Source: Candidatus Latescibacterota bacterium
GTDB taxonomy: Bacteria; Latescibacterota; UBA2968
Assembly: GCA_965220765.1 (NCBI GenBank)
Contig: OZ244847.1
Span: 320,646-384,645 of the forward strand
DNA length: 64,000 nucleotides
Reading direction: 5' to 3'
Each line of letters opens with the position of its first letter. Positions within the stretch are counted from its first letter, which is position 1. The position numbers and the translations under genes are program-made. The notes beneath the pieces are model-generated. The model searched no databases. It was not told the origin of the DNA and saw only the letters and a list, made by a program, of their open reading frames with translations. Positions 13,059-51,062 of the stretch are shown here, piece by piece.

Positions 13059-13067
13059 ATCTGAGCT

Positions 13068-16949: not shown

Positions 16950-16959
16950 AGGCTATGCC

Positions 16960-21051: not shown

Positions 21052-21978
21052 ATGAATAACGTGTGGGAAATACCTGAACCTCTTTCGACATGCGAAGTCC
21101 AGCTCGACGATGACACCGTCACCACCTTACGGCGGCATGGAAATCCCGAAGGCCCCCGACTCGTTCTGAGCCACGGCAATGGCCTCGCAATAGATCTCTA
21201 TTACCCCTTCTGGTCACTTCTCGCCGATGATTTCGACCTCGTCATCTTCGACCTCAGAAATCACGGCTGGAATACCGTTGGTTCACGCGAAAAACACAAT
21301 ATCCCGACGCTGGTTCGCGACCAGCTCTGTATTTTTGAATCCATTGACCGTCGCTATGGGAATAAACCAAAAACCGGTATATTTCACTCTGCTTCTGCGC
21401 TGATAACCCTCCTATCGTCAACCGCTATGGCAGACCTGTGGTCGTCTGCTCAAAACAGCCATTTATCGGCGATGATTTTATTTGATCCCCCCTTGTGCAA
21501 GCCCGGCAATAGCCAGATAGAATTTGATAAGGCCATCGAACACGCAGCCGCAACTACCCGCCGCCGCGGGTATCTGTTTCAAACAGAAGAGGATTTTGCA
21601 GAACTCCTCAGCTATCTGCCCGGCTTCTCACGCGTCGTTTCCGGGGTTCGGGAACTCATGGCACTAACAACGCTTCGAAAGTCTGCTGATGAACAGGGTT
21701 ACGAACTTCGGTGTCCTCGCGAATACGAAGCGCAGATCACTGATTATTTCAGGAGTTTTTCTGCATTGGCGGATTTTGAAACACTGTCTTGTCCCACAAA
21801 GGTCATCGGAGCCGACCCCACCTTGCCCTATGCATTTCTGCCGACCATTGACCTTGGTGACATTCTAACTGTAGATTACGATTTCGTGCCAGAGGCAACG
21901 CATTTACTTCAATTGGAAAAACCAGCGAAATGCGTTGATATGGTCCGGGCATTTCTCGAAATTAATCGCCTGTTGTAA
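21052..21978 (+). CDS. alpha/beta-hydrolase fold protein, first gene of the PKS operon
   Basis: HGNGLAIDLYY...DLRNHG pattern of alpha/beta hydrolases; ends 26 nt before the PKS start. Confidence 0.6.
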   Translation: MNNVWEIPEPLSTCEVQLDDDTVTTLRRHGNPEGPRLVLSHGNGLAIDLYYPFWSLLADDFDLVIFDLRNHGWNTVGSREKHNIPTLVRDQLCIFESIDRRYGNKPKTGIFHSASALITLLSSTAMADLWSSAQNSHLSAMILFDPPLCKPGNSQIEFDKAIEHAAATTRRRGYLFQTEEDFAELLSYLPGFSRVVSGVRELMALTTLRKSADEQGYELRCPREYEAQITDYFRSFSALADFETLSCPTKVIGADPTLPYAFLPTIDLGDILTVDYDFVPEATHLLQLEKPAKCVDMVRAFLEINRLL

Positions 21979-22004
21979 AACCCGTGCGAACATGGAGGTG
22001 TCAC

Positions 22005-25000
22005 ATGAAGCCGGATAAATCAGACCAACCAATAGCGATCATAGGTATGGCGTGTCGATTTCCCAACGCGCCGAATATCTCTGCCTTCTGGCGTCTGCTC
22101 GAAGCCGGTCAGAACGCCGTGACAGAAGGGGCCCCAGGCTCTGGCGTTGGTCGCGTGGGCACGCTCTTCCCAAACGCTGAGGTGCAGAACGACGCCTGCC
22201 GTTTCGGCGCCTTCGTCGATGACATCGACCTGTTCGACGCCACCTTCTTCCGCATTTCGCCGGTCGAAGCGCAACTGCTGGATCCCCAGCAACGGATGAT
22301 GCTGGAGACGAGTTGGCAGGCGCTTGAGGACGCGGGGATAGATCCGGATCGGCTAAAGGGTAGCCGCACCGGTGTGTACGCAGGAATCAGCAACAACGAT
22401 TATCGGGGCGTAATTCTGGGATCCAGCAGAACTGCCGAGCCTTCCGCCAGCCTCTTCTCTGTCGCGGGCACCTCTCTGAACACAGCCATAGGTCGAGTAG
22501 CCTTCGCATTGGGTCTGGGGGGACCGGCAATGGCGGTAGATACTGCCTGTTCGTCGTCGCTGGTTGCGACAAACCAGGCGGTTGCTGAATTGCAGCAGGG
22601 CAAAGCGGATCTGGCACTGGCGGGCGGGGTGCAGGCGATCCTTTCCGGGCGGCTAACCGAACTGCGGGGAAATGCCGGAATGTTGTCGCCAGACGGGCAA
22701 TGCAAGGCGTTTGATGCATCTGCGAATGGCTTCGTGCGAGGTGAAGGCTGCGGAATTGTGGTCCTCAAACGACTGAGCGAAGCAGAGGCCGATGGCGATC
22801 ACATCTGGGGCGTCATCCGAAGCACCGCGGTAAACCAGGATGGCGCGAGTACAGGCCTGACGGTACCAAACGGTCCGGCACAGGAGCGCGTGATCGAAGA
22901 GGCACTATCGCGGGCGGGAATTCTGCCATCGGAAGTCGATTATGTAGAGGCACACGGAACGGGCACAGAGGTGGGCGACCCCATTGAGATAAACGCGACA
23001 GCAGCGGTGTACGGCAAGGGGCGCGAGGAGGACAACCCGATACTCGTCGGCTCGGTAAAAACAAATATCGGTCATCTGGAGCCAACCGCGGGGATTGCGG
23101 GCCTGATCAAGACCGTACTCTCGATGAAGCAGGGCGTGATCCCAAAGCATCTGCACTTCGAGAATCCCAATCCGAACATGGACTGGGATCGACTACCTCT
23201 GCGAGTGACTTCCGAGGCAATGGACTGGCCGCTCAACGCCGAACGACCACCGATTGCGGGAGTGAATTCGTTCGGATGGTCGGGCACAAACGCGCATGTT
23301 ATAGTGGAAGGGTACGGAACACCAAAAAGCAGTGATGAAGAGTATTTACCCGTGGGACTCGCACGGCCTGTTGCCATTTCTCTACCGAAGTCAGTGCTAC
23401 CGTCGGAGGAAGAACTCGGCGCGCGCAGGACGCGATTGCTGCCGCTATCGGGAAAATCCGATGAAGCGCTTCGAGACCTGGCGAGGCAGTACCTGAAACG
23501 CGATTTTGCTTCCGAAGATGAAGCCCTGCTTGCCGACATGGCGTGGACAGCCGGCGTGGGACGAAGCCATTTCCCTCACCGCGCGGGCATCGTATTCAGC
23601 GATGGCGCATCGCTGCGCGAGAGCCTGAATGCACTCGCAGAGATCAGCACGAGACCTGCGCCGCAAACACCCTCCAAAATCGCATTTGTATATACCGGAC
23701 AGGGTAGCCAGTGGGTCGGCATGGGCGAGCACCTGTACCACACCGAACCAGTGGTGCGGACAGTGCTGGACCAATGCGACGCCGTGCTGCGGGAAGCGAG
23801 AGGTGCCTCGTTGCTCGATGTGATATTCGGTCGCGCTGGTGATTTATCCGACCAGGAGTGGACACAACCAGCCATTTTTGCGATAGAATGTGCACTGACA
23901 GCACTCTGGAAAAGTGTGGGTATTACACCCGGTGTGGTGCTCGGACACAGTCTTGGAGAACTGGCAGCGGCGCAAGCAGCAGGTGTCTTTAGCATAGAAG
24001 AAGGTGTGCGATTTGCTGCGGCGAGAGGCGAACTGACAGCGACACTGCCCGGTGGTGGGGCCATGGCGGCCATTTTTGCGGACGTGTCACAGGTAGAATC
24101 AGCCCTCGACGAATTGAACGCAGCCTCCACAGGCGTGGGACTGAGCATTGCGGCATACAACGGAGCGCATCAGGTGGTGAGCGGTCCCGAAGAAGAGATC
24201 GAGACGATCTCCGAGCACTTCCTCGCGCAGGACATTCGGGTCAGCCGCTTGCGCACCACGCACGCATTCCACAGTGCATTGGTAGAGCCGATGCTGGACA
24301 AACTGGATGCCATAGTCTCAGAGATCGCGATCGCGCCCCCATCGCTCACCCTGGTGAGCAATGTGACGGGTCAGGTGCTGGAAACGGGAAAACGTCAGGA
24401 TAGTGCGTATTGGCGTCAGCACACGCGAAAGCCAGTGGCATTTGCGCCAAGCATCGAGACATTGGCTGGGCTGGGCGTCGATCTGGTCATTGAAGTGGGT
24501 CCGCACGCCGTGCTGAGTACAATGGCGACCCTGTCGTGGCCAGACACGGCAGGGGATCCTCCTGTTGCGCTACCGAGCTTATTGCGTCCCTCGTCCAAAG
24601 TGTCGCAAGCAGAAGCCGACCGCGCATTTACAGAGGCAGTTGCAAATGCTTATGAGGCGGGTCTTTCCGTGTCCTTTGCCGGACTGTTCGCAGGTGAAAC
24701 CCGGCGCCGTATTTCGCTACCGGGCTATCCTTTCCAGCGCGAACGCTACTGGGTCGAAACACCGAAACGACGGCGGCAAAGCACCGGTCATCCCCTCCTG
24801 GGCGAGAGGCATGAATCCGCCAGCGGCGAAATTGCGTTCGAGACGGAGATTTTTCCATCGGATCCGACTTGGCTGAACGATCACAGGGTGTTCGGCCGTG
24901 TCATAGCCCCGGGCGCGTTCTATGGGGCAATGGCGATATCGGCATCCACCGCCGAGAGAAGCGGATCGATGGTCATCGAGGAAATGCAACTGCACAATGC

Positions 25001-28000
25001 GCTGATCTTCCCGGAGGAGAGTGCGGATAACGATGAAGGCAGGGGCCGGGAAATGCAGGTTCTGCTCGAGGCTCCAGGGGAGGCACCCTCGCGCCTCGTT
25101 CGAATATTCAGCAAAGGAGAGGCCGAGGAGGATTGGACGCTGCACGCGGAATGTCGCGCGCCATCGGATGCCGGCGCCAGGCAAGCCTCTGAGCAGGTGG
25201 ATCTGGAAAGCCTGAAGGCCGGTCTGTCGCCCGAGGACGTGCCGGCGTTTTACCGCGCCAAGGCGGGCGTCGGGATTGATCTCGGCCCATCGTTCCGCAC
25301 GCTGAGGATGGTCTGGTCCCGGGCGGGCGAGGCGTTGGGAGAAGTGTGTTTTCCCGAGGCTCTCGGCGGGAACGATCTCGACGTACACCCGCTCCTGCTC
25401 GACGGTTGCTTTCAGGTGATGGGAGCCGCGCGCAATCCGGGTGGAGCCGAAGACGGAATCACCTATCTGCCGTTCGGCTGGGAGCGGCTGTGGCTGCCGG
25501 ATCGGCTACCGGATCGGTTTCTCTGCCACGTGCGCATGCGGGAGGCTTCGAAGAATCGGGAACCGGATGCCGAAACCGGCGGGTCGCCAGAGGTCTTCGT
25601 GGGGGATTTCCTTCTCTACGACCAGAGTGGGGTCCTGATCGGCGAATTGAGCGGATTCATGGTGAAGCGCGCGACGCGGGCGGCGCTGCTCTCGGCAGTG
25701 GAAGGGGTTCAGGAACTGCTCTACGAGGTCATGTGGCGCGAAAGCGCCCTTGCGCCGGGACTGCTGCCAGCGGATTTCCTTCCGAGTCCGGGAGAGGTTG
25801 CGGACCGCTGGGAGCTGTTCTCCGACTACCTGGCAGCGGAAGGAGTCGACGCCGGATTGAGGCCCGCCTGGTTGGCGGACCTCTCGTGCATGGCGCGGCA
25901 TTTTGCGCTCTCGGCCCTGGAGAAACTCGGATGGGAGAGGAAGGTGGGCACCGCCGTGGACTCCGAAGATTTGCGGCAGCGCCTGGGAGTCCTGGATGAA
26001 CACAGCCGTCTGTTCCGCCGGATGCTCGAAATATTGGCTCGCGCAGGCGTTCTGGAGGCGGCGGGCGAAGATTTTGTCGTTGCCGTAGGGGCTGGAGATC
26101 CCTTGCCAGAAGGAATTCCGGGCAATCCCGAGCAGTTCGCGGCACAAGTGAGCGAGCGTTACTCGTATGCTTCAAGCGAGATCGGGATTTTTCGCAGAAG
26201 CGCGGGTGCCCTGGCGGAAGTGCTTCGCGGCGAAGAGGATCCGCTGTCGCTTCTCTTCGGCAGCGGAGAACCCAGCGCCGCGGATCTCTATTTCAAGGCA
26301 CCGATATATCGAGCGTCGAACCGGATGCTGGGAGACGCGGTGCGAACACTTGTAGCCGGGTTGCCCGAAGGACGGCGCTTGAGGGTGATTGAGGTCGGGG
26401 CGGGTACCGGATCGGCGACCGAATCCGTCCTGCCTGAGCTTCCCGAAGGGCGGTACGACTACATGTACACGGATATCTCGGCGGGTTTCTTCGCGCAGGC
26501 AGAGGGGTTGTTCGGCGATGAGTGTATCGAGTACCGGGTGCTGGATATCGAAAAAGACCCCGTAGAACAGGGATTCGACGCCCACGGTTATGATTTGTTG
26601 ATTGCGTCCAATGTGCTGCACGCCACGCGGTACCTGGAGGAAACGCTGACGCATTGCAGGAGCCTTCTCGCGCCGTCGGGACATCTCGTGGCACTCGAGA
26701 ACCTTTGCGGCCAGGATTGGCTGGATATGACTTTCGGACAATTGGACGGCTGGTGGCGGTTCTCAGACGACTGCCGCCCCACCTACGCCCTGGCGGGGCC
26801 AGACGTATGGCGACAGTCCCTCGGCAGCGTGGGTTTCGAAGGCGTGGAGATTCTGGGACTGGGCGGACCCGACGCCGCCGAGATTCCGGATAGAGGCGTG
26901 ATTCTGGCGCAGCTGCCCGAGGACGTAGCCGAAAGACGCGGAGTATGGGTTCTGGCGGAGGACCGCGGCGGCGCGGCGGCGGTACTGGCCATGGAGTTGG
27001 CGGCGCGCAACCAGACGGTTGTGCTGGCGAGCGATGCAGGTTCGACGGGAGAGGGTCCGGCGGATGAAAAAACTGCTGTCATCCATACGTCCCTGGAGAT
27101 GGAGCACCGAGAATCGTGGCAGTCGCTGCTGGAAGGTCTGCCCGCAGATGCGCCGCTCAGCGGCGTCGTGCATCTCGTGGCGCTCGACGGTCGCGGGTCT
27201 GATACGACGACTGCTGAGATGGCGGAGGACGTAAAACGAGTAGGAGCGAGCGCATTGGCGCTGGCGCAGGGTCTGGCCGACGCCGATGTGACACCCGAGA
27301 AGGGCTTGTGGTTCCTCACGCGGGGCGCGCAGGTGCTGGAGCGCGAACGCGCCGGAGAGCTTGTCGGCGCGACGCTATGGGGTTTCGGAAAGGTACTGGC
27401 CCGGGAAGCATCCCACATGCAGCCGAAGATGATCGATCTGGATCCCGAGCCTACGGCACCGCCGATAGACCTCGCCAATGAACTGCTCTATCCCGATACG
27501 GAAGACCAAATCGTACACCGAGGCAGCCGACGCCGCGTAGCCCGCCTTGTCCGGACCGGCGAGGGGACGGATAGGATAAACTTGCCCGAAGAGCCGGGCT
27601 GGATGCTGGGGGTCGGCGAAGACGGCGCGATCGCTGACCTGCAGGTGGCGCCGACGCCGCTGGAGTCGAAAGAAGTTCGCGTGGCTGTCGAGGCCGCCGG
27701 GTTGAACTTCTGGGATGTGTTCGCGGCGCTCGGTTTGATTGACGAGAAATTCCTGGGCACGGAGTTTTGCGGCCATACCATCGAGGTCGGCTCCGAGGTG
27801 GCGAGCGTTGCGGTGGACGAGCGCGTGGTCGGATTGGCATTCGGCTCTTTCGGGCCGGAAGTGGTGACCCGGGCGGAACTCTTGGCACCCGCGCCACCGG
27901 ATTTGTCCGCCACGGCGCTCGCCTCAATGCCGACGGTGTTCGTGTCAGTCGCGCTGTCTTACGAACTCGCGGGGCTGAAAGCCGGTGACCGCGTGCTGAT

Positions 28001-31000
28001 TCACGCAGGCGCAGGCGGCGTGGGGCTTGCGGCCATCCAGTGGGCGCAGGCAGCGGGAGCGGAAGTGTTCGCGACGGCGAGCGCGCCGAAACAGGCGTAT
28101 CTCCGCTCGCTCGGTGTAAAGCATGTGTTCGACAGCCGTCAGACGAAATTTGGGGAGGAAATCCTCAAGGCCACGGACGGCGCAGGGGTCGATGTGGTAT
28201 TGAACAGCCTGACGGCGGAGGGTTTCATAGACGCGAGTCTGGCGTGTCTGGCGCATGGTGGCCGGTTCGTGGAATTGGCGGCGCGGGACATTCTGAGCGA
28301 GGAAGAGATGGCGGCCGTACGGCCGGACGTGGCCTATTACATCGTGAATCTTCATGCCCTGAAGGGGGATGACCCGGCGCGACCCGGCGCTTTGCTGAGA
28401 GACATCATGGAACGGCTGTCAGCGGGAGAACTAACGCCGCTCATCCACACCAGATGGCCGCTTGCCGAAGCGAGACGGGCCATTGAGTTCATGCGCGACG
28501 GCAGACACATCGGAAAAATCGCCTTTGCGAATTCGCCGCTCACCAGTGGGCGGTTGCGAGAGGATCGAACCTATCTGGTAACAGGTGGTCTGGGTGGGAT
28601 CGGGTGCGTAATGGCCGACTATTTGGCGGATCGCGGCGCAGGTGCAATCGCGCTAAACGGGCGCCGGGCACCGGACCCTGAAGCCGAAGAGACGATCCGC
28701 AGGCTGCGGGAACGCGGCGTGACAGTGCAGGTAGAGATCGCAGATGTGACGGACGCCGATGCAATAGATGAGATGCTGGCGCGGATGGATGAGACGCTAC
28801 CGCCGCTCGGGGGCGTAATCCACAGCGTGGGGGTATTGTCGGACGGTGCGCTCGGGAACCAGAGTTGGGAAAGATTCGAGCAGGTGCTGTGGCCGAAGGT
28901 GTTGGGCGCGTGGCATCTGCATCGCGCGACTGAGGACCGCGATCTGGATATGTTTGTCCTCTTCTCCAGCGTGGCCGGCGTGCTGGGCAATCCGGGCCAG
29001 TCGAATCACGCGGCGGCCAATGCGTTTCTGGATCAACTCGCCGCGCATCGCCGCGCACTCGGACTTCCGGGACAGACCATCGCCTGGGGCGCCTGGTCGG
29101 AACTCGGCGAAGCGGAAGAACAACGGGAACGGATTGCCGAACGGCTGGAAGCGCGAGGAACGGATTGGATCACGCCGCAGCAAGGTCTCAGGGCATTCGA
29201 CCAACTGGTGCGCGAGGACGCCGCGACATCCGTCGTGCTGGCAGCCGATTGGTCGTCTTACGAGGAGGGCCTGGAATACCGGATGCCCCTGCTGGAGGAT
29301 CTGCTCTCCACCATTTCAGAAGACGAGGCCGATTCGCCTGCTCTGGCGGACGACCTGATGTCCCGTCTGGCGGAAACGCCCGCGGCGGAGCGTGAAGCCC
29401 TGTTGGTATCGTTCCTACAGCAGGAATTACAGGCGGTGCTGAGGTTGCCGACAGCACCGGAGCCTACAGTGGGATTTTTCGATCTGGGGATGGACTCGCT
29501 GATGGCCGTAGAGTTGCGAAACCGCCTGAACCGGGCATTTGCCGATGAGTACGTGGTACCCAACACTGTGGTATTTGACTACCCGGACATCGCCCGTCTC
29601 GCCAACCATCTAATTGAGGAACTCGGCGAAGTCAGCACTGCGCCCGTCCCTCCACCCCAGGTGCAACCCGAACCAGAACCACAGACGGAAGTACAGCGCG
29701 AGGACAACGGTATTGCGATTGTGGGCATGGCCTGCCGCTTCCCCGGCGCCCCGGATCTTTCCGCCTTCTGGCAGCAGCTCGAAGCAGGTGCGGACGCGGT
29801 GACCAACGGACGCCGGGATTCCGGTTCATGGAACGCTCTTGCCAAAGACCTTCCTCCCGAATACGCCGCCTATCGCCGGGGCGGATTTGTGGAGGGAATT
29901 GATCAATTTGACGCGAGATTCTTTCGGATTGCGCCGATTGAAGCGCGCATGATGGATCCGCGGCAACGCATGATGCTGGAGACGACCTATCAAGCGCTCG
30001 AGGATGCGGGAATTGATCCAGACAAATTGAGGGGCAGCCGCACCGGGCTATACGCTGGCATCGCCACCAGCGAATACCGGGACCTGATGACAGCCAGCGA
30101 CCACGGCATCAGTTATCTGAGCACTGCCGCGAGCATGACGGTCGGGCGAATTGCTTTCCTTCTCGGTTTGGAGGGACCAACGATACCGGTGGAACTCAAC
30201 TGCGCGTCATCATTGGTCGCGGTACATCAGGCAGTGATGGGTTTGCGAGAGGGCGAAGTGGATATGGCTCTGGTTGGAGGGACACACGCAGTTCTGTCTC
30301 CTGAGTTAACCAAAGAGATGGCGGAGTTGGGGATATTATCGCGGGAAGGGCAGTGCAAAACCTTCGATGCCTCTGCGGATGGCTTCGTCCGGGGTGAGGG
30401 CTGTGGGATGATCGTCCTCAAACGGCTGAGCGAGGCAGAAGCCGATGGCGACCGCATCTGGGGCGTGATCCGCGGGTCAGCGGTCAACCAGAACGGGGCC
30501 AGCGCAGGACCCACAGTACCAAACGGACCGGCGCAGGAGCGGGTGATTGAGGAAGCACTGTCGCGAGCGGGCGTTGCCCCATCAGAAGTGGATTATCTGG
30601 AAGCACACGGGGGTGCGTCGGAGTTGGGCGATCCGATCGAAGTGCAGGCAGCGGCTACTGTTTATGGCAAGGGACGCGAAGCAGACCGACCGCTTTTGAT
30701 CGGCTCTGTGAAGACCAACATCGGTCACCTGGAACCAGCTGCTGGCGTTGCGGCTCTGATCAAGGCAGTACTCGCCATGAAGCGGGGGGTGATTCCTAAA
30801 AACCTGCACTTTGAGAATCCGAGCCCGCATATAGACTGGGACCGGCTTCCAGTACGAGTAACTTCAGAACTGACAGACTGGCCGCGCCATCCCGACCGAC
30901 CGCCGCGGGCGGGGGTCAGCGCCTTCGGGATATCGGGCACAAATGCCCATGCTGTCGTAGAAGGATATGACAGCCCGGATGCAACGCCTGTGGGTTCCGC

Positions 31001-32063
31001 GCAACCCGTTTCTCTGTCGGTCGTGGATCTCATAGGCGAGGAAGAAGAATTCGCTCTGCGCCAGACGCGGCTCCTGCCCCTATCGGGAAAATCCGATGAG
31101 GCACTGCGAGATCTGACAGGACGCTATCTATCGTGGCTCGACGAGCTTGCATCCGAAGATGAGGCGACACTTGCCGACATGGCGTGGACAGCAGGTGTGG
31201 GGCGCAGCCATTTCGATCACCGCGCAGGCATCGTATTCCAGGATGTTGAATCGCTGAGAGAGAGGTTACAGACACTCGCAGAGATCGGTGAAAGACCAGA
31301 ACCGCATACGGCGACAAAGGTCGCCTTCGCGTACACCGGACAGGACAGCCAGTGGATCGGCATGGGGAAAGACCTCTACGAAAGCGAGCCGGTAGTCCGC
31401 GCAGTTCTGGACCGTTGCGACGAAGTCCTTCGGGAAGAGCGTGGCACCTCGTTGCTGGACGTGATGTTCGGTCAGACCGACGATCTATCTGATCTGCCAG
31501 CCATCTATGCACTGGAATCCGCACTTACAGCACTGTGGTCAAGCGTGGGGATTCAGCCCAGCGTGGTGGTCGGACGCGATATCGGGGAAATTGCAGCAGC
31601 GCAAGCGGCAGGCGTCTTTAGCTTAGAGGATGGCTTGCGAATCGCGCTGGAGCGGGACACAGACAGTCTGGAAGCCACCCTCGCAGACGTCACAATCGCA
31701 CCGCCATCTTTGACTCTGGTGAGCAGTGTAACAGGAGAGATCGAGAGCCTTGACGCAGCATACTGGCATCGGCAAGCGCAGGCGCCAGTGGCATTCGACA
31801 AATGCATGAAGAAGCTGGCCGATCAGGGGATTGATGTACTCATCGAGATTGGTCCAAACTCAGTGCTGGACCCGATAGAGGGCGACGCGGAACCACCCGT
31901 TGTCTTGTCGAGCCTGGGAGACGACGGGTTTGTAGAAGCAGTAGCGAAGGCGTATGAAGCGGGACTTTCTGTTTCATTTCCCGGACTATTTGAGGGAGAA
32001 ACGCGCCGCCGCATCTCCTTGCCGAGCTATCCATTCCAGCGTCAGCACTACTGGATTCAATAG
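22005..32063 (+). CDS. type I polyketide synthase: KS-AT-DH-cMT-ER-KR-ACP-KS-AT(degenerate), no ACP/TE at C-terminus
   Basis: Motifs read directly: DTACSSS, HGTGT, GHSLGE, HAFHS, HRVFGRVIAP, VIEVGAGTGS, LIHAGAGGVGLAA, YLVTGGLGGIG, LGMDSLMAVEL, ELNCASS, HGGAS, GRDIGE; RBS GGAGGTG 4 nt before ATG 22005. Confidence 0.9.
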   Translation: MKPDKSDQPIAIIGMACRFPNAPNISAFWRLLEAGQNAVTEGAPGSGVGRVGTLFPNAEVQNDACRFGAFVDDIDLFDATFFRISPVEAQLLDPQQRMMLETSWQALEDAGIDPDRLKGSRTGVYAGISNNDYRGVILGSSRTAEPSASLFSVAGTSLNTAIGRVAFALGLGGPAMAVDTACSSSLVATNQAVAELQQGKADLALAGGVQAILSGRLTELRGNAGMLSPDGQCKAFDASANGFVRGEGCGIVVLKRLSEAEADGDHIWGVIRSTAVNQDGASTGLTVPNGPAQERVIEEALSRAGILPSEVDYVEAHGTGTEVGDPIEINATAAVYGKGREEDNPILVGSVKTNIGHLEPTAGIAGLIKTVLSMKQGVIPKHLHFENPNPNMDWDRLPLRVTSEAMDWPLNAERPPIAGVNSFGWSGTNAHVIVEGYGTPKSSDEEYLPVGLARPVAISLPKSVLPSEEELGARRTRLLPLSGKSDEALRDLARQYLKRDFASEDEALLADMAWTAGVGRSHFPHRAGIVFSDGASLRESLNALAEISTRPAPQTPSKIAFVYTGQGSQWVGMGEHLYHTEPVVRTVLDQCDAVLREARGASLLDVIFGRAGDLSDQEWTQPAIFAIECALTALWKSVGITPGVVLGHSLGELAAAQAAGVFSIEEGVRFAAARGELTATLPGGGAMAAIFADVSQVESALDELNAASTGVGLSIAAYNGAHQVVSGPEEEIETISEHFLAQDIRVSRLRTTHAFHSALVEPMLDKLDAIVSEIAIAPPSLTLVSNVTGQVLETGKRQDSAYWRQHTRKPVAFAPSIETLAGLGVDLVIEVGPHAVLSTMATLSWPDTAGDPPVALPSLLRPSSKVSQAEADRAFTEAVANAYEAGLSVSFAGLFAGETRRRISLPGYPFQRERYWVETPKRRRQSTGHPLLGERHESASGEIAFETEIFPSDPTWLNDHRVFGRVIAPGAFYGAMAISASTAERSGSMVIEEMQLHNALIFPEESADNDEGRGREMQVLLEAPGEAPSRLVRIFSKGEAEEDWTLHAECRAPSDAGARQASEQVDLESLKAGLSPEDVPAFYRAKAGVGIDLGPSFRTLRMVWSRAGEALGEVCFPEALGGNDLDVHPLLLDGCFQVMGAARNPGGAEDGITYLPFGWERLWLPDRLPDRFLCHVRMREASKNREPDAETGGSPEVFVGDFLLYDQSGVLIGELSGFMVKRATRAALLSAVEGVQELLYEVMWRESALAPGLLPADFLPSPGEVADRWELFSDYLAAEGVDAGLRPAWLADLSCMARHFALSALEKLGWERKVGTAVDSEDLRQRLGVLDEHSRLFRRMLEILARAGVLEAAGEDFVVAVGAGDPLPEGIPGNPEQFAAQVSERYSYASSEIGIFRRSAGALAEVLRGEEDPLSLLFGSGEPSAADLYFKAPIYRASNRMLGDAVRTLVAGLPEGRRLRVIEVGAGTGSATESVLPELPEGRYDYMYTDISAGFFAQAEGLFGDECIEYRVLDIEKDPVEQGFDAHGYDLLIASNVLHATRYLEETLTHCRSLLAPSGHLVALENLCGQDWLDMTFGQLDGWWRFSDDCRPTYALAGPDVWRQSLGSVGFEGVEILGLGGPDAAEIPDRGVILAQLPEDVAERRGVWVLAEDRGGAAAVLAMELAARNQTVVLASDAGSTGEGPADEKTAVIHTSLEMEHRESWQSLLEGLPADAPLSGVVHLVALDGRGSDTTTAEMAEDVKRVGASALALAQGLADADVTPEKGLWFLTRGAQVLERERAGELVGATLWGFGKVLAREASHMQPKMIDLDPEPTAPPIDLANELLYPDTEDQIVHRGSRRRVARLVRTGEGTDRINLPEEPGWMLGVGEDGAIADLQVAPTPLESKEVRVAVEAAGLNFWDVFAALGLIDEKFLGTEFCGHTIEVGSEVASVAVDERVVGLAFGSFGPEVVTRAELLAPAPPDLSATALASMPTVFVSVALSYELAGLKAGDRVLIHAGAGGVGLAAIQWAQAAGAEVFATASAPKQAYLRSLGVKHVFDSRQTKFGEEILKATDGAGVDVVLNSLTAEGFIDASLACLAHGGRFVELAARDILSEEEMAAVRPDVAYYIVNLHALKGDDPARPGALLRDIMERLSAGELTPLIHTRWPLAEARRAIEFMRDGRHIGKIAFANSPLTSGRLREDRTYLVTGGLGGIGCVMADYLADRGAGAIALNGRRAPDPEAEETIRRLRERGVTVQVEIADVTDADAIDEMLARMDETLPPLGGVIHSVGVLSDGALGNQSWERFEQVLWPKVLGAWHLHRATEDRDLDMFVLFSSVAGVLGNPGQSNHAAANAFLDQLAAHRRALGLPGQTIAWGAWSELGEAEEQRERIAERLEARGTDWITPQQGLRAFDQLVREDAATSVVLAADWSSYEEGLEYRMPLLEDLLSTISEDEADSPALADDLMSRLAETPAAEREALLVSFLQQELQAVLRLPTAPEPTVGFFDLGMDSLMAVELRNRLNRAFADEYVVPNTVVFDYPDIARLANHLIEELGEVSTAPVPPPQVQPEPEPQTEVQREDNGIAIVGMACRFPGAPDLSAFWQQLEAGADAVTNGRRDSGSWNALAKDLPPEYAAYRRGGFVEGIDQFDARFFRIAPIEARMMDPRQRMMLETTYQALEDAGIDPDKLRGSRTGLYAGIATSEYRDLMTASDHGISYLSTAASMTVGRIAFLLGLEGPTIPVELNCASSLVAVHQAVMGLREGEVDMALVGGTHAVLSPELTKEMAELGILSREGQCKTFDASADGFVRGEGCGMIVLKRLSEAEADGDRIWGVIRGSAVNQNGASAGPTVPNGPAQERVIEEALSRAGVAPSEVDYLEAHGGASELGDPIEVQAAATVYGKGREADRPLLIGSVKTNIGHLEPAAGVAALIKAVLAMKRGVIPKNLHFENPSPHIDWDRLPVRVTSELTDWPRHPDRPPRAGVSAFGISGTNAHAVVEGYDSPDATPVGSAQPVSLSVVDLIGEEEEFALRQTRLLPLSGKSDEALRDLTGRYLSWLDELASEDEATLADMAWTAGVGRSHFDHRAGIVFQDVESLRERLQTLAEIGERPEPHTATKVAFAYTGQDSQWIGMGKDLYESEPVVRAVLDRCDEVLREERGTSLLDVMFGQTDDLSDLPAIYALESALTALWSSVGIQPSVVVGRDIGEIAAAQAAGVFSLEDGLRIALERDTDSLEATLADVTIAPPSLTLVSSVTGEIESLDAAYWHRQAQAPVAFDKCMKKLADQGIDVLIEIGPNSVLDPIEGDAEPPVVLSSLGDDGFVEAVAKAYEAGLSVSFPGLFEGETRRRISLPSYPFQRQHYWIQ
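22026..23315 (+). other. PKS domain KS1 (active-site Cys codon 22548-22550)
   Basis: GMACRF..DTACSSS..EAHGTGT..NIGHLE..GTNAHVIVEGY. Confidence 0.8.
23678..24545 (+). other. PKS domain AT1 (active)
   Basis: YTGQGSQW, GHSLGE (Ser codon 23949-23951), THAFHS. Confidence 0.75.
24790..25660 (+). other. PKS domain DH
   Basis: HPLLGER...LNDHRVFGRVIAPGAFY (HxxxGxxxxP). Confidence 0.65.
26190..26880 (+). other. PKS domain C-methyltransferase
   Basis: SAM motif I VIEVGAGTGS at 26385-26414; ...LLIASNVLHAT. Confidence 0.65.
27500..28535 (+). other. PKS domain ER
   Basis: LIHAGAGGVGLAAIQWAQAAGAEVFATAS NADPH motif. Confidence 0.7.
28560..29100 (+). other. PKS domain KR
   Basis: YLVTGGLGGIG Rossmann motif; ...NHAAANAFLD. 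Confidence 0.7.
29380..29600 (+). other. PKS domain ACP (in cis)
   Basis: LGMDSLMAVELRNRL (Ser codon 29496-29498). Confidence 0.7.
29710..30970 (+). other. PKS domain KS2 (Cys codon 30201-30203)
   Basis: GMACRF..ELNCASS..EAHGGAS..NIGHLE..GTNAHAVVEGY. Confidence 0.75.
31318..32060 (+). other. degenerate, truncated AT2 (Ser to Asp at 31578-31580; about 110 aa shorter, HAFH region missing)
   Basis: YTGQDSQW, GRDIGE in place of GHSLGE; no HAFH motif; ends YPFQRQHYW. Confidence 0.7.
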
Positions 32064-32154
32064 CCAAAACGACCACAAAAATAATTTGACTTTACGCCTG
32101 CCGATCACTATCTTTTCGGCTCAAACCATCTACCCTTACGAAAGGAGCTTAACA

Positions 32155-32394
32155 ATGGCTTCAACTGCAGAACGTATCAGAAACCTCATCGCGGAAAATC
32201 TGGAAGTTGATGGGCAGCCAATTTCGTTGCCCGATGACCTGAGCATCAGCCTCTTGGAGGCCGGAATTTCCTCCGTAGATCTCGTCGCGTTCGCGAAAAT
32301 AGTCGAACAAGAATTTGACGTTAAATTGACTCTTGAAGATTGTGCTAATCTCAACAGCGTACAGGAACTGGTCGCGCGGCTGGACGCAGCCTGA
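32155..32394 (+). CDS. discrete acyl carrier protein (79 aa)
   Basis: MASTAERIRNLIAENLEV...LLEAGISSVDLVAFAKIVEQEF (four-helix ACP pattern with Ser in GISSVD); RBS AAAGGAG 7 nt before ATG 32155. Confidence 0.7.
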   Translation: MASTAERIRNLIAENLEVDGQPISLPDDLSISLLEAGISSVDLVAFAKIVEQEFDVKLTLEDCANLNSVQELVARLDAA

Positions 32395-32436
32395 GACTGA
32401 AATCCTCTCCAGCCGGAGAACGTACGCTTCTTATAG

Positions 32437-32473
32437 AACAGGCCCCGGATGGAAATTCGGGGCCTGTTGGTTT
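32437..32473 (+). terminator. terminator-like hairpin after the ACP gene
   Basis: AACAGGCCCCG-GATGGAAATT-CGGGGCCTGTT followed by GGTTTA. Confidence 0.45.
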
Positions 32474-32521
32474 ATGGGAATTCGATGAAGGTTCCGCTTA
32501 TTTAACCTTTCACACTTCACA

Positions 32522-34264
32522 ATGAATACCAATAATCCCAGCGGTGACACAGGTATCCGCTACCAGCCCGACGAAAGGCCTCCGGCGACACTCGCCCTCG
32601 GCCTTGGCTTGCAACTCGCCGTTCTCAGCATAGCCGCCATCATATTGGTCCCGACAGTCGTGATGCGCGCCGCAGGTACGACTGAAGCCTATCTGTCATG
32701 GGCCGTGTCTGCCACGGTCGTAGTTGGCGGGGTGGCCACAATTCTGCAATCAATCCGCATCGGTCGAATCGGCATGGGTTACCTGCTCATTATGGGTCCA
32801 TCCGGAGCCTTCATCGCGGTCTGCATCACGGCCATTACCGAAGGCGGTCCGGCGATGCTCGCCACCCTGGTCGTCATCTCATCCTTCGTCCCGCTTGTAC
32901 TTTCCCATCGGCTTTCGCTGTTTCAGCGACTCTTGACGCCGACCGTCGCGGGAACAGTAATCATGCTGATACCCATTACGATAATGCCGCCCATTTTCAA
33001 TCTGCTATCGGCGCCCGGCGCACCAGCGTTCGCTGCGCCGCTGAGTGCGCTTGCAACAATCATCATTATCAGCGGCATCGCGCTAAAGGCGACTGGGGTG
33101 TTACGCCTCTGGGCACCGGTTATCGGCGTTGTCGTCGGCTCGATAATTGGCGGCTTCTTCGGCCTATACGAAGTGGACCGCATTGCCGAGGCTTCGTGGA
33201 TCGGCCTGCCGCCGAACGAATGGCCGGGCTTTGATCTCGATTTTGGACCAACTTTCTGGGCACTTCTTCCCGCATTCTTGCTCGTAGCCATAATCAGTAC
33301 CATCCGAACGATCAGCAGCTCCGTCGCCATCCAGCGCATATCGTGGCGTCAGAGCCGAGCAGTGGATTTCCAAGCGGTGGGTGGTGCGATAACCGTAGAT
33401 GGGATAAGCAACTTGATTTCCGGTCTCGCAGGAACAATACCCAACACAGCCAACACGCTGGGCGTGTCGATGGCCGAACTCACCGGGGTTGGTGCCCGCA
33501 GCGTCGGGGTTGCCACCGGAGCAGTGTTCATTGCTATGGCATTTCTTCCGAAAGTACTCGCTCTGATCCTCGCGATACCAGGTCCCGTCATCGCAGCTTA
33601 TCTCACCGTACTCCTGGCGGCACTCCTCGTAGTCGGAATAAAGATACTCACTCAGGATGGAATTGACTATCGCAACGGCATGATCGTCGGCATCGCGTTC
33701 TTTGTAGGGATTGGTTTTCAGAGCGGCCTGATATTTCCCGAATATATCTCGGAATTTGCAGGCGGTCTTTTAGAGAATGGAATGAGCGCGGGTGGTTTCA
33801 CTGCCATTCTCATGACGCTGTTTGTGGAACTAACAGAACCTCGCCGCAGCCGGATAGAGATGACATTCGATTTTTCCGCCCTGCCAAAAATCAGGGACTT
33901 TCTCAGCGCATTTGCATCCCGCAATAGTTGGGACGCCGCAATGGCGAACCGTCTGGACGCCGCTGCTGAGGAAACATTGCTAACACTCATACCAGATGAA
34001 GAAGAACACGACCGCCGGCACTTGCGCCTGATTGCGTACAAAGAAGAAGGCGACGCGGTTCTCGAGTTCGTTGTCTCGTCGGGAGAAGATAACCTTCAGG
34101 ATCGGATCGCGCTGCTCAGCGAACAGACGGACGAAACCCCTGTGGAGCGAGAAGTTTCTCTTCGGCTGTTGCGACATCTCGCATCATCTGTTCGCCACCA
34201 GCAATACCACGAAACAGATATCGTAACCGTGCGTGTGAAAGCCCACCATCACGCACCGCCATAA
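32522..34264 (+). CDS. APC-superfamily permease (NCS2/SulP-like) with about 140-aa C-terminal cytoplasmic domain
   Basis: About 12 hydrophobic segments with Gly-rich helices typical of NCS2/SulP 7+7 transporters; charged soluble C-terminal tail. Confidence 0.5.
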   Translation: MNTNNPSGDTGIRYQPDERPPATLALGLGLQLAVLSIAAIILVPTVVMRAAGTTEAYLSWAVSATVVVGGVATILQSIRIGRIGMGYLLIMGPSGAFIAVCITAITEGGPAMLATLVVISSFVPLVLSHRLSLFQRLLTPTVAGTVIMLIPITIMPPIFNLLSAPGAPAFAAPLSALATIIIISGIALKATGVLRLWAPVIGVVVGSIIGGFFGLYEVDRIAEASWIGLPPNEWPGFDLDFGPTFWALLPAFLLVAIISTIRTISSSVAIQRISWRQSRAVDFQAVGGAITVDGISNLISGLAGTIPNTANTLGVSMAELTGVGARSVGVATGAVFIAMAFLPKVLALILAIPGPVIAAYLTVLLAALLVVGIKILTQDGIDYRNGMIVGIAFFVGIGFQSGLIFPEYISEFAGGLLENGMSAGGFTAILMTLFVELTEPRRSRIEMTFDFSALPKIRDFLSAFASRNSWDAAMANRLDAAAEETLLTLIPDEEEHDRRHLRLIAYKEEGDAVLEFVVSSGEDNLQDRIALLSEQTDETPVEREVSLRLLRHLASSVRHQQYHETDIVTVRVKAHHHAPP

Positions 34265-35706
34265 GCCCTCGCAAAGTAGGTCTGAAACCCCTCTGGCCCG
34301 GGCCAGCCATCGAAAAGGTGACAGTTCTCGGGCACCTCGCCTTCTGCGCCGTTTTTGAGCCAGTCGATCAGAATGGGATCAGCACCCCGGCGCTCGAGTT
34401 CAGAAAGACCCGCGGCATGCAGGTTCTGGACGCGGGCGGGATATTCCGACGCCGTATTGTCCAGCGACCCATAAGGCGTGAGCATGCAGTCTGCTGCTTC
34501 GGGTTGCCATTCCAGATACCCCTCCTGATCGAACACAGTGAAAAAACCGCGCTGTTTTGCCCATCCTCGGGCAGTGCCCGCAAGCGCGAGTTGTCGCATC
34601 CCTGAACTGCTTTCCCGCGCGGCGGTGAGAATATCCTGGCTGTCTATATTTCCCGGAATGGGCGCACCAGCCAGATTGGCGACAGTAGCGTAAAAATCCT
34701 GGGGTTGGAAGATGGCAGAACTGCGCCCCGCGTCACCCTCGGGCGTTTTAATAATAAGCGGAATGTGAATCTCCTGCTCATACACAGGCGCGTACTTGCC
34801 AAAGCGCCCGCGCTCGCCTACATTGGTCCCGTGATCCCCGGCAATAATAATCGCGGTATTTTTGCTCAGGCCCGTGGCGTCGAAGGCTTCGAGAAACCGC
34901 CCAAAGCAGTGATCCATCCATGTGACCTTGGCGGCATAACTCGCTTTGAGGCGTGTTTTGGCTTCATCGGGTAAATTGGGATTGTTGCGTCCCCCGCCCT
35001 GAAAAGCGCGGGGATCAAGCCGCCCATCGTAACCGGGAGTTTTGTCGTATTTCAGCATAAAAGCCGGCGGCACATCCCACGGTTCGTGGGGATCGAAACA
35101 ATCAATCCACAGAAAGAAATTTTCCCGCCGCGCATTATCCCGCAAGAATTGAGCTGCGGTATTGAACAACTTCGCGCAATTCCAGTCGTCTAAATTTGTG
35201 CGCCCCCGGTTAGTACGGGCATACGTGTAATTGTGTTTTGTCAGATCTGCGTCCTCTCCCAGAACATCGAATACGGGATCTTTGCACCAGTTGGTCGGCC
35301 ACTGCGCTTCGTCGTCCATCCAGGCCCGGTCAACTTCTGCACCGCGAATAAATGTCCATGTGTGGAACGGATAATCAAATGCGTGCCCACCGTTGACGAG
35401 ATGAGGCGTATCGTGAATGAGTTGTGTCGCGTATCCCGTTTCGCCCAGCACAGAGGGAAGAGAGCGCGTGTCAAAAGGCAGGGGTTTCCAGGTGTGGAAC
35501 GGACTGCCGTATTTTCCAGTCATAACATCCGTGCGATAGGGAATGGTCGGAAAGCTGGCGGCAAAAGCGCGGTCAAAACACCACGACTGCGCGGATAGAC
35601 GGTCGAGATTGGGCGTTTCGATCCAGTCATTTCCGTTCGCACCAATATAGTCATAGCGCATTGTATCAATAATAATGAGGACAATATTCATGGAATCTCC
35701 CTTCAC
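34249..35706 (-). CDS. sulfatase-family (alkaline-phosphatase superfamily) protein lacking the formylglycine Cys/Ser (TxPxR instead of C/SxPxR)
   Basis: IIIDTMRYD...AFAASFPTIPYRTDVMTG aligns to the sulfatase signature region with Thr at the FGly position. Confidence 0.55.
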   Translation of the reverse strand: MKGDSMNIVLIIIDTMRYDYIGANGNDWIETPNLDRLSAQSWCFDRAFAASFPTIPYRTDVMTGKYGSPFHTWKPLPFDTRSLPSVLGETGYATQLIHDTPHLVNGGHAFDYPFHTWTFIRGAEVDRAWMDDEAQWPTNWCKDPVFDVLGEDADLTKHNYTYARTNRGRTNLDDWNCAKLFNTAAQFLRDNARRENFFLWIDCFDPHEPWDVPPAFMLKYDKTPGYDGRLDPRAFQGGGRNNPNLPDEAKTRLKASYAAKVTWMDHCFGRFLEAFDATGLSKNTAIIIAGDHGTNVGERGRFGKYAPVYEQEIHIPLIIKTPEGDAGRSSAIFQPQDFYATVANLAGAPIPGNIDSQDILTAARESSSGMRQLALAGTARGWAKQRGFFTVFDQEGYLEWQPEAADCMLTPYGSLDNTASEYPARVQNLHAAGLSELERRGADPILIDWLKNGAEGEVPENCHLFDGWPGPEGFQTYFARAYGGA

Positions 35707-36479
35707 ACTTCCTGAATCACCGGTGGTCGTCTTCCCGCAGATGGTGGCGTTAAGATACGCCGCTGTTGATCTGATGGATTGGTATAGTCATCCGCATTGT
35801 AAAAATTATTGGAATACGCCAGATGGCCCGGGGCGTATTTGTACAGAAAAGCTCGGCGTTCATGGCTTGCTCGCCACGGCATCGTGCCGTGCATCAGCGC
35901 CTCTGTAAAAATCAGCGCATCGCCTGCTTCTACTTCGGGTTGAACCATATAGTCGGGAACGCGTTCAAAACCTCGTACTTCGGGTGGCACATTTTGTCCA
36001 AAATTGGTCTTATGGCTTCCGGGAATACAGGTAAAGCCACCATCTCCCGCCTTTGCATCTGCCAAAAAGAACGTCACCACACTCAACCCATTCAACATCT
36101 CACCTTCCAGATACAGGTACTTGCGTTGGCTGCCCGTATGCCCGCCGGGCGCACCGTGCAGGCGGCCACAAGCAGCCCCCGGCCTCATAAAGATGCAATA
36201 ATCGTGATCGAGGCGAAAACCTGGACCGAGCAATTCAATTAAATACGGTAAAATGCGCGGATGATCGATCAGAGCCTGTGTCTCTGGCGACCACGCAGAC
36301 ACGCGCCCCACTTGTCGGCGCCCTGCTCGCCCCTTTGAGTCCTTGCCCGGATCGTCGTAATCCCGCACAAATGTCGCATCAGCGACCTCATTGAGCCGTT
36401 TGACTTCCTCAGGCGTCAACACATTTTTAATGATCAAATACCCATCGAGGTCAAACATAAACCGTTCTTCTGGTGTCAT
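35703..36479 (-). CDS. PhyH-family Fe/2-oxoglutarate dioxygenase
   Basis: MTPEERFMFDLDGYLIIKNVLTPEEV... PhyH-like N-terminus; HxD..H pattern; 4-nt overlap with the downstream gene. Confidence 0.6.
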   Translation of the reverse strand: MTPEERFMFDLDGYLIIKNVLTPEEVKRLNEVADATFVRDYDDPGKDSKGRAGRRQVGRVSAWSPETQALIDHPRILPYLIELLGPGFRLDHDYCIFMRPGAACGRLHGAPGGHTGSQRKYLYLEGEMLNGLSVVTFFLADAKAGDGGFTCIPGSHKTNFGQNVPPEVRGFERVPDYMVQPEVEAGDALIFTEALMHGTMPWRASHERRAFLYKYAPGHLAYSNNFYNADDYTNPSDQQRRILTPPSAGRRPPVIQEV

Positions 36480-41375: not shown

Positions 41376-42671
41376 TCATCCATGAGACCCCTTCACACCA
41401 ATCGGCCAATTAGGGGAGTCTGTGCGCGCATCTTTCATAAAACTCTCGATTTCAGCGATCACATCCGGATGATCCGCGGCGACATCGTTTTCCTCGCCAA
41501 TATCCCTGTCCAAATCGTATAACTCGAGTGGTTCGTCAAGCAATAGGGGCGACGGATTGCGCACGGCCTTCCAATTTTTCCAGCGCACAGCCTGTTTGAA
41601 ACCCCCGCTAAAGCGCTCCCAGTACAAAAAGCGCTCCCCAAGATCCTGTGATTCACCCAACAGCGTCGGCAATATGCTAACGCCATCCATATTCTCTGGC
41701 GCGTCTGTGCCGGTCACGTCTGCAACCGTAGGCATAAAATCGGCGTAATACCACACCTGATCGCTCACAGTCCCCGCAGGGATACGATCGGGCCAATGCA
41801 CAATCATAGGCGTACGCAAACCACCTTCATACATCGTCCCTTTTTGCCCGCGCAAAGCACCACAACTGCCAAATGGTTCCCACCGGCGTGCGGCCCCATG
41901 GTCAGAACCAAAAAACAAAAGCGTATTGTCCTTTACCCCCAGTTCGCGCAACAAATCCGCAATTTGTCCAACCTGTGTATCAATCTTTGTAATCATCGCC
42001 GCATAAACTTTCTCATCATCCGTCCAGGGTTTATCGTCCCAGGCACTCGCATCGGGGATTTCATATCTCCCGTGCGGCAATGTCCACGGCAAGTACAAAA
42101 AAAACGGACCATCGCTATTGTTGCGAATAAAGTCACAGGCAAAGTCAAAAATCATATCGTGAGAATAGTCGTTCTCCTCGCCGTCCAGATTGCCCTTGAG
42201 AATAACCTTCTCTTCATTGTGCCACAAAAAAGGCGGATAATACGAATGCGCATTGCGCTGGTTGAGATAGCCAAACCATTCATCAAATCCCTTGCGCGTG
42301 GGAATACCCGCCGAATCGGGTTCACCCAATCCCCATTTCCCCGTTATCCCAGTGGTATATCCCCCCTCCTTGAGCATCTCGGCAACCGTAAAATCCTCCG
42401 GCTCAAGCGGCACCCGTTTCTGCTCTCCCACACCGCCCACAATGCCCATATTGTCGCGCACCCTCGTATGCCCACTGTGCAAACCCGTCATTAAAACCGA
42501 GCGAGATGGCGCGCAGATTGAAGACCCGGTATAACACTGTGTGAACCGCATGGATTCCGACGCAAGCTGGTCCAATCGGGGTGTGGGAATAACCTTTTGC
42601 CCATAACAACCCAGATCGCCATAGCCAATATCATCACAGAGAATAAAAATAATGTTGGGCAATGACATCAT
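41376..42671 (-). CDS. Cys-type sulfatase (arylsulfatase family)
   Basis: LCDDIGYGDLGCYG...SSICAPSRSVLMTGL (CxPxR FGly motif). Confidence 0.8.
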   Translation of the reverse strand: MMSLPNIIFILCDDIGYGDLGCYGQKVIPTPRLDQLASESMRFTQCYTGSSICAPSRSVLMTGLHSGHTRVRDNMGIVGGVGEQKRVPLEPEDFTVAEMLKEGGYTTGITGKWGLGEPDSAGIPTRKGFDEWFGYLNQRNAHSYYPPFLWHNEEKVILKGNLDGEENDYSHDMIFDFACDFIRNNSDGPFFLYLPWTLPHGRYEIPDASAWDDKPWTDDEKVYAAMITKIDTQVGQIADLLRELGVKDNTLLFFGSDHGAARRWEPFGSCGALRGQKGTMYEGGLRTPMIVHWPDRIPAGTVSDQVWYYADFMPTVADVTGTDAPENMDGVSILPTLLGESQDLGERFLYWERFSGGFKQAVRWKNWKAVRNPSPLLLDEPLELYDLDRDIGEENDVAADHPDVIAEIESFMKDARTDSPNWPIGVKGSHG

Positions 42672-50909: not shown

Positions 50910-51062
50910 TGGATATACCTTTAGAAGAGGCGGTAAGAAGCAGGCGAGATAACCGCCCACCCCCTCTTGCGTTTCACGTCTCACCGATGTTTCACGTGGA
51001 ACGTTTTACAACTGGTCGCGTCATCCCGTGAGGGTTCTACACAGGACCAGACCAGTTCAACA

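Follow-up and report, generated by a model that had tools for sequence, protein, structure and literature searches.

The subject of this report is a type I polyketide synthase (PKS) locus in 64,000 nucleotides of DNA from a Candidatus Latescibacterota bacterium (NCBI GenBank assembly GCA_965220765.1, contig OZ244847.1, positions 320,646 to 384,645 of the forward strand). This whole stretch is called the window, and positions are counted from its first letter. Very probably the locus is a sup (sponge symbiont ubiquitous PKS) cassette. Its synthase joins one complete reducing, C-methylating module to a second ketosynthase (KS2) and a dead acyltransferase (AT0); a free-standing acyl carrier protein (ACP), an alpha/beta hydrolase and a permease are encoded beside it. 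A first-pass annotation, made from the letters alone, had called this architecture undescribed. That claim is not upheld, and the locus adds a further member to a known, biochemically uncharacterised family, no characterised member of which came up in a literature search. Sup membership together with the mechanism proposed below for the second module is our main reading and, taken as a whole, a likely one. The sup cluster (supA-E) was reportedly first described by Fieseler et al. in 2007, from the fosmid clones pSW1H8, pAPKS18 and pAE27P20, and Hochmuth et al. in 2010 is said to be a further reference for it. In PKS surveys of sponge microbiomes, genes of the Sup type predominate, and they head the list of candidates for making the mid-chain methyl-branched fatty acids characteristic of bacteria-rich sponges. 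The window does not widen this picture by another kind of system, but it supplies a complete cassette within a 5.71 Mb assembled chromosome contig. The comparison with related loci also sharpens the points to test, namely the best-conserved KS2, the conserved dead acyltransferase, the joint travel of free ACP and hydrolase, the histidine of the ketoreductase, and the exchange of PKS alleles between genomes that are otherwise nearly identical.

Sup proteins are unusual small monomodular PKSs, widespread in and confined to high-microbial-abundance sponges, and are candidates for mid-chain-branched fatty acids; in one sponge Sup-type genes accounted for over 99% of the KS amplicons (PMC4245539). 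The identification of the present locus rests on its setting, on its one complete C-methylating module, on the primer motifs of its first ketosynthase (KS1) and on the permease of the cluster. By Pfam, which supplied all domain calls, the small type I synthase contains one complete reducing module, methyltransferase included. DPQQ and HGTGT are the target motifs of the degenerate primers with which supA is amplified from sponge DNA (PMC4245539). KS1 carries both, reading LLDPQQRMMLE and EAHGTGT; KS2 reads DPRQR and HGGAS, and these primers would not amplify it. In PMC3908369, SupE (ABE03914, clone pAPKS18) appears as a permease, and an NCS2-type permease gene stands directly downstream in the window cassette, a correspondence at the level of gene presence. 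A five-gene cassette with the permease as its fifth member fits the lettering supA-E with SupE as permease. SupA itself reportedly has the order KS-AT-DH-MT-ER-KR-ACP-KS-AT, with genes for an ACP, a PPTase and a hydrolase beside it; the cassette found here fits that lettering, and its match to this order is through gene content. SUP-like clusters have been found in genomes of several phyla within one sponge (PMC9426513). The relatives of the present locus likewise belong to uncultured, sponge-associated bacteria of several phyla, an indication that is indirect and comes from bin names: many of the genomes bear names of the sponge-study type (SB06xx_bin, RHO, IRC, COS), the sample biome being inferred from the name only. 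Some of these bins we take to come from Aplysina aerophoba, presumably the sponge source of two published sup clones.

To gather these relatives, an alignment of ACP relatives was run against a genome set holding one member of each species; 230 species-level genomes were positive. Unless stated otherwise, cassette counts, labels and PKS residue tallies refer to the best 80 of these, each locus anchored on the free ACP; residue tallies use readable homologues only, and their denominators differ from site to site (68-76 PKS loci, 92 ACP family members, 49-121 hydrolase homologues). All 80 are metagenome-assembled genomes (MAGs) under at least seven phylum-level labels: Latescibacterota (32), Chloroflexota (15), Acidobacteriota (11), Gemmatimonadota (9), Rhodothermales (3), Opitutales (2) and Gammaproteobacteria (1), with 7 unclassified. 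The cassette recurs in at least 78 of these 80 related species-level loci, and its gene content and setting match sup. Beside the ACP stand a PKS with KS2/AT0 (78/80), a permease (74/80), a hydrolase (65/80) and a phosphopantetheinyl transferase (PPTase; 43/80). The order PKS, ACP, PPTase, hydrolase, with a permease following on the opposite strand, is seen most frequently. Compared with sup, the window copy has its hydrolase gene moved 5' of the PKS, a co-directional permease and no PPTase within 64 kb; nine of the closest Latescibacterota loci (L013-L016, L018-L022) have this variant order too. The closest loci are MAGs named Candidatus Latescibacterota bacterium, and in one of them (L013) the ACP is 100% and every PKS domain 95-100% identical to the window. 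A homologue search with the KS2-AT0 part of the synthase as query, together with the hydrolase search, placed Nitrospira sp. SB0672_bin_25 and Caldilineaceae SB0666_bin_21 among the nearest matches.

Two departures from the usual cassette deserve mention. In a convergent subgroup (L039-L041, L043-L046, L048, L051, L052, L054, L063, L066, L070) a hydrolase, a reverse-strand permease and the ACP are met by an opposite-strand PKS running toward the ACP; here AT0 is only about 40% identical to that of the window and the KS2 motif is ELNCASA. In some other assemblies gene calling splits the synthase at linkers between domains, into two or three proteins (L093, 2173-12295; L094, 2426-12784; L010, 1-9930). 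In L093 the pieces are KS1-AT1, DH-to-ACP1 and KS2-AT0, and in L094 they are KS1-to-KR and ACP1-KS2-AT0. Such calls may be real gene fissions or frameshift errors of long-read assemblies.

The layout itself, KS-AT-DH-cMT-ER-KR-ACP-KS-AT0 with a split ACP, is real by open reading frame, Pfam and motif evidence, and most of what the first-pass annotation had said about its parts stands. KS2 has its Cys/His/His intact. The second acyltransferase (AT2) cannot work: its motif is GRDIGE, with Asp at the position of the Ser nucleophile, and in a global alignment with the first (AT1) it lacks 88 residues matching AT1 676-763, HAFH included, and it has no small subdomain. The polypeptide stops right after the post-AT linker (YPFQRQHYWIQ and then the stop codon), with no carrier or release domain after it. 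The gene for the 79-residue ACP lies 92 nt downstream of that stop and has its own ribosome-binding site (AAGGAG, 7 nt before the ATG). KS1-AT1 and KS2-AT2 are 61% identical, the latter being a duplicate of the former.

Whether this second module is alive was a question already raised by the earlier annotation, which named loss of the KS2 catalytic residues and of the ACP phosphopantetheine serine as signs of decay. Neither loss is seen. Among related loci the KS2 Cys is kept in 74/74 and each KS2 His in 76/76, and Ser40 of the free ACP in 91 of 92 family members, with 17 invariant columns. In a tree of both ketosynthases from 29 loci KS1 and KS2 split cleanly, so the duplication would be older than the spread of the cassette. 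Mean identity is 83% among KS2 domains, 76% among KS1 domains and 62% between the two; judged by these values KS2 is constrained more tightly than KS1. The AT2 nucleophile site is other than Ser in 73 of 76 readable loci (Gly 60, Asp 9, Asn 3, Arg 1), two of the three Ser cases being mis-picked AT1 domains, and about 100 database homologues of KS2-AT0 give a like pattern. Since the AT0 state is common to several phyla, it is old and stable. Given the kept Cys/His/His, the stronger conservation of KS2 over KS1 and the kept Ser40, conservation shows a second module that is designed to work and has not decayed. The contrary view, that KS2-AT0 is an inert duplicate and the downstream ACP unrelated or dead, can draw on the lost nucleophile and 88 residues and on the duplication, but is very improbable given these kept residues, the KS2 and KS1 identities, the cross-phylum AT0 state, and the KS2-AT0 or ACP1-KS2-AT0 called as a separate intact protein in some genomes.

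Module 1 is complete, and the motifs of its dehydratase (DH), methyltransferase (cMT), enoylreductase (ER), ketoreductase (KR, except Tyr) and first carrier (ACP1) are invariant among 68-76 homologues. KS1 reads DTACSSS, HGTGT and NIGH. The earlier statement that all signature motifs are readable needs amending at one place, the KR, whose catalytic Tyr position is occupied by His2335 (nt 29005-29007; GQSNHAAAN, normally GQxNYAAAN). In alignment, this His takes the place of the catalytic Tyr of mycocerosic acid synthase; it occurs in 71/71 homologues from several phyla, all of which keep the Lys, Ser and Asn residues and the NADPH motif. To our knowledge, all characterised relatives have Tyr at this position.

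The partner genes are likewise as first described, an alpha/beta hydrolase upstream (Abhydrolase_6) and a permease downstream (Xan_ur_permease). The hydrolase has a predicted triad of Ser113 (FHSAS), Asp and His284; S113, D255, D277 and H284 are invariant among its homologues, and the protein is 53-64% identical to hydrolases encoded 3' of the ACP or PPTase gene in other cassettes. A sequence search for the hydrolase gave no close relative of solved structure. Its AlphaFold model (pLDDT 67.5) leads Foldseek to generic alpha/beta hydrolases at TM 0.35-0.55, with the curacin thioesterase among the top fold matches at a TM below 0.5. The permease shares 36-42% identity with its counterparts in three other cassettes (L007, L009, L011). 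That it is a chance neighbour was considered and rejected, a homologue being present in 74/80 loci. Its C-terminal stretch of about 150 residues (33812-34261) is an extra domain with weak likeness to GHKL/anti-sigma kinases (HATPase_c_2 E = 0.003, RsbA E = 0.0013, both below cut-off); anti-anti-sigma factor genes have been noted beside a SupE-like permease (PMC3908369). As for the PPTase, the first-pass annotation was right that none is present in the window: tblastn with two cassette PPTases as queries found no homologue across the whole 64 kb. The statement does not extend to the family. Because a PPTase gene lies inside the cassette at 43/80 related loci, its absence is a local trait of the window lineage.

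How these parts might work together can be proposed as follows. Module 1 would build or extend a saturated acyl chain from malonyl units and add a methyl branch derived from S-adenosylmethionine (SAM); the HAFH of AT1 and the intact SAM motif of the methyltransferase point to SAM, not methylmalonyl-CoA, as the source of the branch. KS2 would then take the chain from ACP1, a transfer made plausible by its position directly after ACP1, to which it is fused in one variant (L094), and condense it with malonyl carried on the free ACP, as the presence of its Cys suggests it should. Since AT0 would be unable to load a carrier, that malonyl group would be loaded by AT1 or by the FabD of the cell, and AT0 would serve as a structural scaffold or partner for KS2. 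The acyl-ACP would finally either be freed by the hydrolase or go on to the type II fatty acid synthase (FAS), where elongation would put the methyl branch mid-chain, as the literature proposal for Sup requires. For the window lineage, the PPTase that activates both carriers would be encoded elsewhere in the genome. A bolder form of this proposal sees KS2, the dead acyltransferase, the free ACP and the hydrolase as a device for handing one reduced, SAM-methylated unit from the type I module over to a type II-style carrier, after which the cell's FAS would finish the chain; the family-wide Lys-Ser-His-Asn KR would then be a working catalytic variant so far unrecognised in PKS enzymology. We hold this form only tentatively and think it rather unlikely; if true, it would explain the mid-chain methyl branches of sponge lipids.

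Several points weigh against the reading of the locus as a sup cassette working in this way. Among the listed matches to the KS2-AT0, ACP and hydrolase queries, no protein carries a Sup name. The term used for Sup is 'monomodular', and a second KS-AT and a free ACP go unmentioned (PMC4245539), while the listed hosts of SUP-like clusters are Chloroflexota, Spirochaetota, Proteobacteria and Acidobacteriota, Latescibacterota not being listed (PMC9426513). The parts, their catalytic residues and their co-inheritance are matters of observation; every chemical step we infer. Finally, the change of Tyr to His in KR leaves a FAS-like working of the reducing loop in doubt.

Among the alternatives, a reversed order of events is rather unlikely but ranks highest. 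KS2 and the free ACP could act first. The free ACP would then supply module 1 with either a fatty acyl group from the type II FAS or a primer that KS2 makes from malonyl; module 1 would attach the methyl-branched unit, and the hydrolase would free the finished product from ACP1. The direction of transfer is not fixed by sequence, the free ACP is weakly like type II carriers of the AcpP family (below cut-off), and a branch in mid-chain calls either for an acyl starter made beforehand or for elongation afterwards, each of which would do. However, KS2 comes directly after ACP1, fused to it in one fission variant, in the usual layout of an upstream ACP delivering to a downstream KS, and it has a Cys in place of the Gln of decarboxylating loading KS domains.

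A different product is also conceivable: a beta-keto acid, a methyl ketone or another oxygenated lipid, made with reduction absent or unusual. The His in 71/71 KR homologues would fit such a product, as would the lack of any KR, DH or ER after KS2 and the appearance of the curacin thioesterase, a decarboxylating offloader, among the hydrolase fold matches at a TM below 0.5. The fold match is generic, though, and the invariance of the KR Lys, Ser, Asn and NADPH motif, of the DH His and Asp and of the ER NADPH motif is hard to square with an idle reducing loop. We regard this outcome as unlikely.

It is improbable, lastly, that the architecture is truly new, in the sense that published Sup proteins comprise a single module only and KS-AT0 with free ACP is an undescribed extension. 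This would account for the 'monomodular' of the Sup literature and for the missing Sup name among the matches. But 78 of the 80 ACP-anchored loci, under at least seven phylum-level labels and including the bins attributed to Aplysina aerophoba, have an adjoining PKS with KS2/AT0, so that a sup cluster lacking KS2/AT0 and the ACP would be the exception. SupA was reportedly drawn with a second KS-AT, and the five-gene cassette ending in a permease also fits supA-E (PMC3908369).

The comparison of loci also bears on how the cassette has moved. The PKS gene has a G+C content of 60.9% (66% at third codon positions), compared with 49.7% for the rest of the window and 50% for the hydrolase and ACP genes. 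In L018-L022 the flanking genes (sulfatase, PhyH, MR_MLE, SGL) are 93-99% identical to those of the window, whereas the PKS domains are mostly only 58-90% identical, with ACP1 at 91-92%. In two Rhodothermales-labelled MAGs (L034 and L035, about 1-12100), identity to the window cassette is 88-97% over module 1, whereas AT0 reaches 62-63%, the free ACP 72-74% and the permease 76-77%; these loci are either mosaics between cassettes of differently labelled phyla or binning errors. Together, the contrast between flanks and PKS and the mosaic point to sup alleles that have been replaced and mosaically recombined inside stable genomes. High supA diversity within single sponges (PMC4245539) agrees with such replacement.

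At the level of the window itself, the coordinates are collected in the table. An identical 3,352-residue PKS is already present in a public collection, and the exact free ACP occurs on at least 21 contigs, the six compared for gene order all having the same one. The PKS frame has an alternative GTG start at 21984, and 26 nt separate the end of the hydrolase gene from the PKS ATG. The region 32395-32490 folds at -40.7 kcal/mol (z = -4.9; 0/200 shuffles equally good), and the strong hairpin directly 3' of the ACP gene suggests that the hydrolase, PKS and ACP genes form a single transcription unit. That hairpin is not among the outputs of a consensus terminator scan; promoter and terminator scans of the window gave counts at chance level, and Rfam and tRNA scans of the window gave no matches.

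Farther out, gidB, mnmE, yidC and dnaA are clustered, and G+C falls to 43% at 54-58 kb. The locus is thus chromosomal; 50271-56564, which lies some 23 kb away from the PKS, probably marks the region of the replication origin. Proteins at least 90% identical to the products of neighbouring window genes are named as Gemmatimonadota or Latescibacteria MAG proteins. The window also holds two sulfatase genes and two PhyH-family dioxygenase genes. The dioxygenase gene next to the cassette was considered as a member and rejected, being conserved in the window's own lineage only. A co-directional run at 11052-19539 comprises DUF6785/DUF6784 paralogues and two genes with TPR domains. A SulP-family transporter is unrelated to the cassette permease, and three frames have no Pfam match at E <= 1e-4.

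Table. Features of the sup-type cassette, the domains of its synthase, and other genes of the window.
Feature	Position	Strand	Evidence
Alpha/beta hydrolase, cassette hydrolase (probably supD)	21052..21978	+	Pfam Abhydrolase_6
Type I PKS, SupA-type, KS1-AT1-DH-cMT-ER-KR-ACP1-KS2-AT0, 3,352 aa	22005..32063	+	Open reading frame, Pfam, motifs
KS1 (aa 8-435), Cys182/His317/His357, DPQQ and HGTGT	22026..23309	+	Pfam, motifs; Cys and both His invariant in homologues
AT1 (aa 561-840), GHSLGE nucleophile, HAFH (malonyl-associated type)	23685..24524	+	Pfam, motifs
DH (aa 929-1228), HxxxGxxxxP and DxxxQ	24789..25688	+	Pfam; His and Asp invariant in 68-69 homologues
C-methyltransferase (aa 1455-1580), VIEVGAGTG SAM-binding motif	26367..26744	+	Pfam Methyltransf_12, motif
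ER (aa 1888-2172), HAGAGGVG NADPH motif	27666..28520	+	Pfam ADH_zinc_N, motif
KR (aa 2189-2366), Lys-Ser-His-Asn instead of Lys-Ser-Tyr-Asn	28569..29102	+	Pfam, alignment
ACP1 (aa 2471-2536), LGMDSL, Ser2498	29415..29612	+	Pfam, motif
KS2 (aa about 2566-2996), Cys2733/His2868/His2908; ELNCASS, HGGAS, NIGH	29700..30992	+	Pfam, motifs
AT0 (aa about 3105-3352), dead acyltransferase, putative scaffold	31317..32060	+	Pfam KS-AT linker and AT; motif reading, AT1 alignment
Free-standing ACP, 79 aa (probably supB), GISS, Ser40	32155..32394	+	PP-binding E = 2e-11
GC-rich hairpin, 13-bp, then UGGUUUAU; terminator-like	32438..32467	+	Folding of 32395-32490
NCS2-family permease, 580 aa (SupE-type)	32522..34264	+	Xan_ur_permease 1.5e-42
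Open reading frame, 396 aa	79..1269	+	No Pfam match
SulP-family transporter with STAS domain	1353..3686	-	
PhyH-family dioxygenase	5737..6555		
Open reading frame, 795 aa	7450..9837	-	No Pfam match
Open reading frame, 283 aa	10066..10917	+	No Pfam match
DUF6785/DUF6784 paralogue	11052..12998		
TPR/PMT_2	13068..14894		
DUF6785/DUF6784 paralogue	14928..16949		
TPR-GWxTD	16960..19539		
Sulfatase	34249..35706		
PhyH-family dioxygenase	35703..36479		
Sulfatase	41376..42671		
gidB	50271..50984		
mnmE	51063..52409		
yidC	52423..54114		
dnaA	55176..56564		

Set beside known systems, and scored where possible against NCBIfam family models with their cut-offs, the locus falls outside several types that its parts might call to mind. 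It is not of the PfaA/HglE type, having a single ACP after KR and no tandem ACPs and scoring 614 with TIGR02813 against a cut-off of 1010; neither a KS-CLF gene nor one of the FabA type occurs among the scanned window frames of at least 150 aa, the last five frames (57826-63701) lying outside that scan. Nor is it a trans-AT PKS, for AT1 is integrated and intact and only module 2 needs an acyltransferase from outside; among the same scanned frames of at least 150 aa, again with 57826-63701 outside the scan, there is no free-standing AT gene. The swf system (SwfA, KS-AT-DH-ER-KR-ACP; SwfB, a reductase-sulfotransferase; SwfC, a radical SAM protein) shares with sup a single-module type I PKS/FAS confined to sponge symbionts, and a SupE-like permease lies near one swf cluster, but SwfA has no methyltransferase, second KS-AT, free ACP or DPQQ/HGTGT, and its partner genes are others (PMC3908369).

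The mycobacterial mycocerosic acid synthase is the best solved-structure match to module 1 (9d2z, E = 9e-261) and also to KR, and it too is an iterative, fully reducing single module making methyl-branched fatty acids. It differs in taking its branches through AT from methylmalonyl-CoA, in lacking a methyltransferase, KS-AT0 and free ACP, and in having the normal KR Tyr. A mycocerosic acid synthase-like or Pks2-type assignment was accordingly set aside, AT1 having the malonyl-type HAFH beside a C-methyltransferase and NF041183 giving 1490 against a cut-off of 2400. Pks13 of mycobacteria (ACP-KS-AT-ACP-TE, the last domain a thioesterase) has parts in matching order, ACP1-KS2-AT, carrier and hydrolase, and aligns over ACP1 and KS2 (9f48, query 2457-2987). 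Its AT is active and carboxyacyl-specific, however, and its carrier and thioesterase are fused, whereas the window has a dead AT and encodes carrier and hydrolase in genes of their own. A Pks13-type condensase was rejected on these grounds, AT2 being without its nucleophile and 88 residues and carrier and hydrolase being separate, and NF040607 gives 1253 against 2100. The fungal highly reducing LovB (KS-MAT-DH-cMT-ER-KR-ACP), which is among the solved-structure matches (7cpx), shares the order of module 1, with cMT between DH and ER, but lacks a second KS-AT0 and a free ACP. The window PKS is a bacterial protein, and its KS-AT didomains are nearest to the cis-AT modules of cyanobacterial CurL and actinobacterial DEBS.

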